64,000 bases of DNA, taken from positions 1-64,000 of the IMG/VR virus record IMGVR_UViG_2858943916_000002. One strand, 5' to 3'. Position 1 is the stretch's first letter, and every line of letters begins with the position of its first letter. Made by a program: the position numbers and the translations under genes. This document shows, one piece after another, positions 931-39,650 of the stretch. The notes beneath the pieces were generated by a model. It did no database searches. It was not told the origin of the DNA and was given only the letters and a program-made list of their open reading frames with translations. Source of the DNA: a virus. Taxonomy: Duplodnaviria; Caudoviricetes.

Positions 931-1088
931 GATAGAAATGCGCTTTTTTGGATGCTTGCCTACTGCTCAGTTTACTTAGCCACACATACGGTTGACTTGG
1001 TCATCCCAGTAGCCGTTTCAGTAGCATCACGTCTTAGATTCCCAACCATTTCAACGACAAACAAACGGCATGGGAATAGTCTTGCCGC

Positions 1089-1265
1089 ATGCATCCCTGG
1101 CCCTTCGACACCATCACGCCCGAGCGCTGGGCGACCCTTCCGGACGAGGACAAGGCAATGATCGAGGCATTGACCGCCACGTTCATTGCCGCGGTGGCGC
1201 GCCGGCGCCAAGTTGATACTCGCGCGCCTGCCTCCGATGACCGCCCCTACCCCGCTCGCCGGTGA
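1089..1265 (+). CDS. 58-aa protein resembling the CI C-terminal WPF domain
   Basis: hand-translated MHPWPFDTITPERWATLPDEDKAMIEALTATFIAAV...; GGGAATAG upstream; aligns ungapped to the CI CTD at 38802-39179. Confidence 0.7.
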   Translation: MHPWPFDTITPERWATLPDEDKAMIEALTATFIAAVARRRQVDTRAPASDDRPYPARR

Positions 1266-1543
1266 GCTTTCTCGTACTCCGCGATCACGGCCACCGCGAA
1301 ATTCAGCGATGCCTGCATCGAGGCCAACATCTGCCGCACGGCTTCGATAGGGTCAGTCATTGATTGCGCAACCCGCTCCGCTGGTGCCGCAGCAGCAGCA
1401 GGTTTACGGATCGAAGCTACCCCGCGGGGCAACCGTCCTCGCCGCGCGGCGTTCTTCACGGGCTGCAGGCCAGCGGTAGGTAGATAGGCAACCTCCGGCG
1501 CCTGGGACGCTTGAGCGAATTTTGAGTCGGTGCTAACTTCCAT
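1247..1543 (-). CDS. hypothetical phage protein (98 aa)
   Basis: purine-rich RBS (GGAAGGAAG); helical C-terminus; downstream of antirepressor in same orientation. Confidence 0.55.
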   Translation of the reverse strand: MEVSTDSKFAQASQAPEVAYLPTAGLQPVKNAARRGRLPRGVASIRKPAAAAAPAERVAQSMTDPIEAVRQMLASMQASLNFAVAVIAEYEKAHRRAG

Positions 1544-2674: not shown

Positions 2675-3409
2675 ATGTACTCATCTAGCGACATAGGCCG
2701 CCGCATCCAGCATGCTCGCGCAGCCCTGGGATGGACGCAGACCCAGCTAGCAAAAGTCTGCGAAATCGCCCCGACTCAGTTCTCACGCTATGAGTCTGGT
2801 AGGGCCACGCCCCGCCCAGAGACGCTCTCCAAGATCGCCGCTGCACTCAACGTCACGATCGAATGGTTGGCTACGGGCGAGGGGCCGGTGCAGGGAGACA
2901 ACCAACTCCCTCCTATGCCTGAAGGATTCGAATCGGTAAGTCTGACTCTTCCAGCAGACCTCGTTGCCCGTATGGAGGACAGCGCGCGGCAAAACGGCCT
3001 GACACTTGAGATGGAGTTGTTACGCCGGCTCGATGAGAAGAATGCGGCGGCAGCCTCTTTGGACAGCTTGGTGGAGCAAGTCCTTTTGAAACTTGTCGAA
3101 CGGGCTGAGGCAGCCGAACGCGAACCCCCGGAACAACAGAGCGGTAGAGACAACAGCTTTCAGCTTGTACAAACCACTCGAGACGCCCTCCTCAAGCCGC
3201 TGCAAACCGTAGCTCATATAGCCGCCGAAGGCAGGCTGAGATCGAGAACTCCACAGATTCCTGGAGTGAACGCTCCTAAGGAGGGACTCGGCGGAGCACC
3301 GAAGGCCAAAAAACCTGAAAAGGCAACGCCGGCTATTACGAAGAAAAAAGTTGCGCAGAAGAAAGCCGCGCAAACCAGGCCAGAGGCCAGCAAAGGTCAG
3401 GAGAACTGA
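2675..3409 (+). CDS. XRE helix-turn-helix regulator fused to an Arc/Mnt-like RHH segment and a Lys/Ala-rich tail
   Basis: IGRRIQHARAALGWTQTQLAKVCEIAPTQFSRYESGRATP; SVSLTLPADLVARMEDSARQNGLTLEMELLRRL. Confidence 0.88.
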   Translation: MYSSSDIGRRIQHARAALGWTQTQLAKVCEIAPTQFSRYESGRATPRPETLSKIAAALNVTIEWLATGEGPVQGDNQLPPMPEGFESVSLTLPADLVARMEDSARQNGLTLEMELLRRLDEKNAAAASLDSLVEQVLLKLVERAEAAEREPPEQQSGRDNSFQLVQTTRDALLKPLQTVAHIAAEGRLRSRTPQIPGVNAPKEGLGGAPKAKKPEKATPAITKKKVAQKKAAQTRPEASKGQEN

Positions 3410-38717: not shown

Positions 38718-38779
38718 TTACCGCAGGGTAATTATTTTGACAAGAAAAATTTACCCCTGGGTTGTTTACCTGCGGGTAG
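38718..38779. promoter_or_regulatory. three cro/cI operators
   Basis: TTACCGCAGGGTAA (38718), TTACCCCTGGGTTG (38751), TTACCTGCGGGTAG (38766). Confidence 0.85.
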
Positions 38780-38801: not shown

Positions 38802-39179
38802 ATGGAAATTGACGATATCTACGCAGTCCGCCTTCAGCGCTTTCGGACCCTGATGGACGACCGGTTCGGCGGCAAACAAGCCGCGATCGCTACTGCGGTT
38901 GGCAAGCCAGCCAACTATGTTTCCCGCATCATCAGCGGGAATAAAAAGCTGGGCGAAGAAATCGTCCGGGAATTCGAGACATCCCTGGACCTTCCCGCGT
39001 ATTGGTTTGACGGGCTAACCGATACAACGGCATGGCCCTTCCCTAGCGTCAGCCGAGCGGCGTATGAGTCGCTTACGCCCGAACAACGCCGTGGCATCGA
39101 ACAATGGGTTGCTAGGCAAGTGGAAGCATTCGGCGACACGCACACGCCGGGCGCGGGTAACTCCAAAAAGAGCGCCTAG
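38802..39179 (+). CDS. cI: CI-like repressor lacking an S24 peptidase domain (125 aa)
   Basis: R..RFRTL..FGGKQAAIA..VGK.ANYVSRIISG..GE...R.FE..L.LP.YWFD; short WPF C-terminal domain. Confidence 0.88.
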   Translation: MEIDDIYAVRLQRFRTLMDDRFGGKQAAIATAVGKPANYVSRIISGNKKLGEEIVREFETSLDLPAYWFDGLTDTTAWPFPSVSRAAYESLTPEQRRGIEQWVARQVEAFGDTHTPGAGNSKKSA

Positions 39180-39611: not shown

Positions 39612-39650
39612 TTACCTACAGGTATTCCTATAATATTTACCTACAGGTAA
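39612..39650. promoter_or_regulatory. two operators at the second early promoter
   Basis: TTACCTACAGGTAT (39612) and TTACCTACAGGTAA (39637), same consensus as the cro/cI operators. Confidence 0.85.

Follow-up and report, generated by a model that had tools for sequence, protein, structure and literature searches.

Background

SinI of Bacillus subtilis imitates SinR's oligomerization domain, and formation of the SinI-SinR heterodimer prevents SinR oligomerization. Prophage-switching small proteins are difficult to detect, and their cataloguing has only just begun (e.g., SinI-like mimics, AimX, Vibrio small antirepressors). AimX, which is encoded by Bacillus arbitrium phages, binds to AimC's C-terminal oligomerization domain and blocks dimerization as well as DNA binding (bioRxiv 10.1101/2025.11.23.689978), and the Gifsy small antirepressors act in trans on non-cleavable repressors, are located far from the immunity region and can act across co-resident prophages (PMC3121763). 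A free copy of a repressor oligomerization region that acts as an antirepressor is an already known kind of protein.

We analyzed a window of 64,000 nucleotides (bases 1-64000; the source IMG/VR virus record is 90 kb long), whose relatives are Achromobacter proviruses, and followed up a short open reading frame, ORF58 (1089..1265, + strand), that a preceding sequence-only reading had proposed to mimic the C-terminal part of the prophage's own CI repressor. The frame reads as quoted there; it encodes 58 aa, starts with M-H-P-W-P-F and represents a stand-alone protein consisting largely of what we here call the WPF module. Like SinI (~57 aa; SinI/SinR complex, 1b0n), which is homologous to the C-terminal oligomerization helices of an XRE repressor and has no DNA-binding domain, ORF58 shows homology to the C-terminal region of XRE repressors (hhalign probability 94%; tblastn E 4e-10). 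Unlike SinI, it shows no relation to the Sin domain (no Pfam match at E<=1), is encoded 37.7 kb from the repressor gene rather than in the same operon, and is phage-borne and of proteobacterial origin, with a predicted leaderless transcript and a link to SRAP genes. ORF58 resembles AimX as a very small helical phage protein facing a non-cleavable HTH repressor; AimX, however, is a member of the aimR-aimP module with a helical fold that varies with the target repressor (bioRxiv 10.1101/2025.11.23.689978), whereas ORF58 is a clear homologue of repressor tails, lies away from the immunity region and stays constant across repressor types. The Gifsy antirepressors (PMC3121763) and Tum of 186 also target non-cleavable repressors and are encoded at a distance from the immunity region, but they are LexA-controlled and unrelated in sequence to repressors, whereas no LexA box was found upstream of the ORF58 family members. 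ORF58 itself matched no Pfam or PHROG antirepressor family (i.e., Bro-N, ANT or KilA-C domains).

Results

The WPF module of ORF58 spans residues 4-38 (1098..1202, + strand), as delimited by the alignment, the AF2 model and hhalign. A -10-like hexamer (TAGTCT; 1077..1082, + strand) is located 6 nt before the ATG, and a weak terminator-like hairpin (1254..1267, + strand; consensus scan only) is found at the stop codon. GC3 of ORF58 is 0.78, the highest GC among its three codon positions, which is the pattern expected in a GC-rich element and thus supports coding. Searches against Pfam (E<=1), NCBIfam and PHROGs gave nothing but phrog_9086 (unknown function) at E 0.011 and no HTH was detected, in agreement with the earlier statement that this ORF lacks a DNA-binding domain.

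Two genes on the minus strand are convergent with ORF58, i.e., a 98-codon ORF (1247-1543) and, ~500 bp away, a Bro-N antirepressor-like gene (1766-2530); this neighbor and the distance of 37.7 kb to cI are as described in the sequence-only reading. The block formed by ORF58, the 98-codon ORF and the Bro-N gene is common to most sister proviruses. Divergent from the Bro-N gene, the window encodes an HTH_3 protein of 244 aa (2675-3409), which has a long tail rich in Lys and Ala and in which no WPF module was found. At the other side, record and window begin within the 3' end of an IS21-family istB (ORF 2-220); as the assembly breaks in this IS, the left prophage border cannot be defined, and a comparison of the left end with the integrase end for an att repeat gave nothing above noise. 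A 201-codon ORF with a lower GC content (325-930; GC 0.50-0.55) matches no Pfam or PHROG family; this ORF and the IS21 end replace, in the window, a flank that carries SRAP and a 177-aa gene in sister proviruses. Two sisters (G004 and G005) show an insertion just 5' of the ORF58 homologue, which consists of a 381-aa HTH_3 + Peptidase_M78 (ImmA/IrrE-like) gene (L007:537-1679) and, alongside, a 160-aa gene (L007:1696-2175 in G004; same in G005).

Profile searches revealed at least 40 clusters (90% identity) of proteins with lengths of 40-122 aa (40-87 aa for the stand-alone homologues); lengths of 47-60 aa predominate, and almost every member begins M-x-x-W-P-F. A TAnnnT hexamer was located 6-7 nt upstream of the ATG in all 21 distinct readable stand-alone loci, while a Shine-Dalgarno (SD) motif was present in none of the 21; among 1319 long control ORFs, the hexamer occurred at that distance in 1.7% and an SD motif in 31%. 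Six internal M-x-x-WP[FY] sites in longer HTH proteins showed no TAnnnT hexamer. The position of the hexamer together with the lack of an SD motif predicts a leaderless mRNA. Moreover, homology with every related provirus starts at 1077, the left edge of the hexamer, and pN/pS over the module was 0.1-0.5 among intact copies from Achromobacter prophages. The sequence-only reading had named, as an outcome that would speak against its proposal, that ORF58 might be the remnant of a truncated repressor gene; what we found instead is a conserved family with a conserved start and a -10-like element, and no trace of an HTH upstream of ORF58. Overall, ORF58 is a real gene, probably expressed separately as a micro-protein for which leaderless translation is probable. 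A repressor truncated in situ was ruled out by the absence of an upstream HTH remnant. Three of nine close copies are damaged, however: the copy at L006:52-228 (G003) reads W-P-S and shows an excess of non-synonymous change (pN/pS >1), that at L009:4617-4800 has a frameshift after codon 36, and that at L002:2660-2845 has lost the ATG and is called as a 119-aa protein. Several 51-aa stand-alone homologues from Achromobacter xylosoxidans (P0045, P0054 and P0058; NCBI) carry the label "2'-5' RNA ligase", which is almost certainly a mis-annotation.

The cI gene (38802..39179, + strand) encodes a 125-aa HTH repressor with a weak HTH_3 match and a match to the regulator family phrog_5736; homologues are present in Achromobacter. 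Its WPF module comprises residues 78-112 (39033..39137, + strand). In the AF2 model the HTH covers residues 1-61 and the tail forms helices at residues 85-89 and 93-111, and nothing other than HTH and WPF tail was found in the protein. No S24 peptidase domain was detected, consistent with the earlier designation of CI as a non-cleavable type. Sequence and profile searches of the PDB matched the HTH part only, with no match for the tail, and Foldseek searches with the CI model gave weak matches (best matches E>=1e-3), among them SinR/SinI (1b0n) and the Rep-Ant complex of the Salmonella phage SPC32H (5d50). The 14-bp palindrome TTACC-N4-GGTAA occurs at four sites in the window, against 0.32 expected, and all four flank cI, with two predicted operators upstream (38718..38779) and two downstream (39612..39650). 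As these predicted operators are palindromes, CI is expected to bind DNA as a dimer. The four sites bracket cI ~880 bp apart, an arrangement that suggests repressor-mediated looping around cI itself; CI may possibly also bind as looped tetramers.

The first ~38 residues of ORF58 are homologous to the CI tail. An ungapped alignment of ORF58 with the CI tail segment at 39033-39131, as proposed in the sequence-only reading, has 9 identities in 33 positions; pairwise BLASTP of ORF58 against CI was not significant (E 0.14) and gave a different, gapped alignment. When profiles were used (hhalign, 8 stand-alone against 16 CI homologues), homology was found in the ungapped register with a probability of 94% and E 1.3e-7, so that the profile search suggested earlier as a check bore out the gap-free likeness. 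An exhaustive phmmer search with ORF58 found seven small homologues. When six related proviruses were translated in all six frames and searched, the HMM of either group retrieved the other group next (E 0.0006-0.06); after the ORF58 copies, the next-best matches of the small-protein HMM were exactly the immunity repressors, and the reverse was likewise true. No gaps were needed to align 56 sequences of the module, both free and as part of a tail; W4, P5, L17 and E26 are present at >=90% in this alignment. HMM E-values were 1e-25 in the stand-alone group, compared to 1e-13 to 1e-15 for the tails of host proteins. ORF58 follows the module pattern (W-P-[FY] ... L ... [DE][KR] .. [LI]E ... hydrophobic helix) without gaps. 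Its AF2 model, built from the same 56-sequence alignment, shows an extended W-P-F segment, a helix at residues 11-16 and a long amphipathic helix at residues 19-44, with pLDDT of 86-96 over residues 1-40. In structure-based searches, VIA-align wide with the model gave generic oligomerization helices at a non-significant best Z of 4.0, and the ESM Atlas search gave a top score at chance level (0.80).

Over the 35 module positions, ORF58 shares 26% identity with the tail of its own CI and 19-40% with other prophage repressor tails, compared to 34-46% with the tail of an Achromobacter chromosomal regulator. Tblastn matched host tails to ORF58 with E 4e-10 (48% over 44 aa), whereas tblastn with the CI of the window gave no match at ORF58. 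Copies of ORF58 remain 76-95% identical while the adjacent repressor type changes. By these measures, ORF58 is not a copy of the tail of its own CI. The proposal that it mimics the prophage's own CI therefore stands insofar as ORF58 is a homologue of the CI tail, but the likeness is not specific to CI, as it extends to at least four repressor types and is closer to the host tail.

In the WPF module (~36 residues), an extended W-P-F stretch is followed by a short helix and then by a long amphipathic helix. The small-family profile matched in 84 of the 201 genomes of the family to which A. ruhlandii belongs, almost always in frames of 120-190 aa, and all 29 longer carriers tested have HTH_3 N-terminal to the module. 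With a broader profile, 2-8 modules were detected in each of the 61 Achromobacter genomes (61/61). No Pfam or NCBIfam model covers the WPF tail in the proteins tested. As judged from these profiles, the WPF module is the usual C-terminal tail of XRE HTH proteins in the host family, and ORF58 is its free form, with no HTH_3 in the same protein. A core chromosomal WPF-tailed XRE regulator of ~130-150 aa (L038:1513-2040, - strand; L049, L054-L056, L063, L069 and other loci) is syntenic across the genus, across genera and across the family, and in every case diverges from a Trans_reg_C (OmpR-type) gene of ~250 aa whose receiver domain is degenerate; a tandem second copy of this regulator is present at L062 and L067. 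A metagenomic, helicase-like protein of 976 aa (P0006) has at least five tandem repeats of ~70 aa, the start of which resembles the 'TPE-W-A-L ... K ... I' of the module.

Among proviruses that carry the small gene, we found at least four heteroimmune types of HTH-WPF repressors, and a WPF-bearing repressor-like ORF was present in 12 of the 13 phage elements in which this gene occurs; the exception (G234) has none within 60 kb downstream. The small gene was absent, however, from three of five further proviruses with the CI type of the window. As WPF tails are in addition the default in Achromobacter, this co-occurrence represents weak evidence of partnership. In three elements the module is located between the HTH and the Peptidase_S24 of repressor-like ORFs (L095:12701-13864 in G208; L093:18100-19446 in G210; ~29.8-31.1 kb into L122-L123 in G228); RecA-type cleavage of such repressors would leave the module on the N-terminal fragment.

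The gene neighborhood of the family is marked by SRAP (PF02586). In eight distinct loci SRAP starts 181-193 nt past the ATG of the small gene, and in one further locus a single gene lies between the two. Four loci from the lineage of the window have SRAP 1.8-2.8 kb upstream on the same strand, while no SRAP is near the gene in the window itself or in several relatives. Outside this lineage, the prophage end starts with the small gene, which adjoins host genes; SRAP is followed by lysis and tail genes on the other strand, and no Bro-N gene is found beside the small gene. The conserved neighbor across the family is thus the SRAP peptidase gene and not an antirepressor gene. The position next to an antirepressor gene, which the sequence-only reading had emphasized, is real in the window but lineage-specific, and SRAP is the neighbor that recurs. 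Aravind and colleagues have described a SRAP-associated domain, ImuB-C, which is predicted to be beta-rich and has a Trp conserved at its C-terminus (PMC3765255). Stand-alone ImuB-C resembles ORF58 in that it is small, corresponds to the C-terminal domain of a larger protein without the rest of it, and is encoded beside SRAP (PMC3765255), but ORF58 is helical in the AF2 model and carries its W-P-F at the N-terminus; identity of ORF58 with ImuB-C was hence rejected.

Discussion

We tentatively favor, with a probability of about 0.4, the reading that ORF58 may act like SinI or AimX, as a small protein whose pairing with WPF tails blocks the dimerization of repressors. The WPF module would then be the element by which repressors pair on palindromic operators; since CI consists of an HTH and the tail and is predicted to bind palindromes, the tail would be the obvious pairing element. 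The free module would form mixed complexes with WPF-tailed repressors, in the first place CI, with the WPF-tailed repressors of co-resident prophages as possible further partners, and such complexes, which would keep one DNA-binding domain, would weaken repression. We infer by analogy with the described systems that the module may mediate pairing, that ORF58 may bind CI and in which direction its effect would go. Observations that count for this reading are the homology of ORF58 to repressor tails, the dimer-type operators of a CI without other parts, the regular attachment of the module to HTH_3 domains in the host family, its co-occurrence with WPF-bearing repressor-like ORFs in phage elements, the SinI and AimX precedents, and the features of a maintained gene (conserved family and start, TAnnnT hexamer, pN/pS <1, confident AF2 fold).

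Other observations count against the antirepressor reading. ORF58 shows no co-variation with the tail of CI, as the same protein is found with four tail types, and the tail of the host regulator is closer to it. The module also occurs in S24 repressors, which already dimerize via S24, so that pairing may not be its role. The decaying copies (G003, L009 and L002), the unexplained SRAP neighbor and the absence of the small gene from three of five proviruses with the same CI likewise count against it, as does the upstream region: no CI operator with <=2 mismatches was found near ORF58, and a search for LexA boxes (CTGT-N8-ACAG, <=1 mismatch, 500 nt upstream, 17 loci) revealed only distant 7/8 matches unrelated to the promoters.

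Some of these points bear on a different target. ORF58 might pair with the tail of the WPF-tailed XRE regulator that belongs to the chromosomal core of Achromobacter and rewire the host regulon, either in the lysogen or during infection, and while we consider this unlikely, the host tail is the nearest relative of ORF58 (41-48% identity, with E 4e-10 in tblastn; for its own CI the identity is 26%, with no BLAST match to ORF58), the regulator is syntenic across genus and family, and both small protein and regulator stay constant while CI types vary. The small gene is also located at the prophage end, where lysogenic-conversion genes usually reside. The difference in identity is, however, based on ~35 residues. 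We see similarly low odds for a broader version, in which a leaderless phage family of ~50 aa would mimic the XRE pairing tail and target the host regulator and/or co-resident repressors but not its own, with SRAP, an abasic-site sensor, co-transcribed. A target among antirepressors seems barely credible: the sequence-only reading had offered as a second option that ORF58 is a decoy for the Bro-N or another antirepressor that stabilizes lysogeny, and in the window's lineage the Bro-N gene does lie ~500 bp from ORF58, but a Bro-N gene is missing from the vicinity of most family members, the two genes face each other and are not transcribed together, and nothing indicates that Bro-N proteins recognize WPF tails. 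We thus found no support for this option.

The SRAP neighborhood raises the question of whether ORF58 could instead serve a SRAP operon as partner, regulator or feedback element, with the module as a general docking peg. The close spacing in eight loci (181-193 nt after the ATG), the further locus with one intervening gene and the four loci of the window's lineage with SRAP on the same strand 1.8-2.8 kb upstream would fit this, but SRAP is missing near the gene in the window and in several relatives, the module is overwhelmingly joined to HTH domains without a link to SRAP, and the known small SRAP-linked domain, ImuB-C, is beta-rich and different; we regard a SRAP-directed role as quite unlikely. 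It appears highly improbable that ORF58 is what remains of a repressor gene's 3' end, in decay or without function, and has been swept along at a recombination hot spot. While the damage in three of nine close copies and the short, mosaic homology blocks (L002 shares only 1077-1327) are in line with such a leftover, the 40 stand-alone clusters with a conserved start, the -10-like hexamer at a fixed distance in 21/21 loci compared to 1.7% of the controls, the pN/pS of 0.1-0.5 and the absence of an upstream HTH remnant argue against it.

Conclusions

Our searches of protein-family libraries and the literature did not find the WPF module, its free form with a leaderless promoter, the SRAP-linked position at prophage ends or the independence from repressor type. 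The analyses presented here define a repressor tail module for which Pfam and NCBIfam have no model, along with its free, conserved micro-gene, which is predicted to be leaderless, a recurrent pairing of this gene with SRAP at prophage ends, and concrete predicted operators and candidate partners. If the small family did target the host regulator and/or co-resident repressors with SRAP co-transcribed, temperate phages of Burkholderiales would have a RecA/LexA-independent route that leads from DNA damage to regulator inactivation by oligomerization-domain mimicry. If, as in the antirepressor reading, the free module poisons repressor pairing, this would explain how the non-cleavable CI repressors of Achromobacter phages are inactivated, and cross-talk between prophages, as well as with the host regulator, could run through the module in Achromobacter, an opportunistic pathogen of cystic fibrosis airways.
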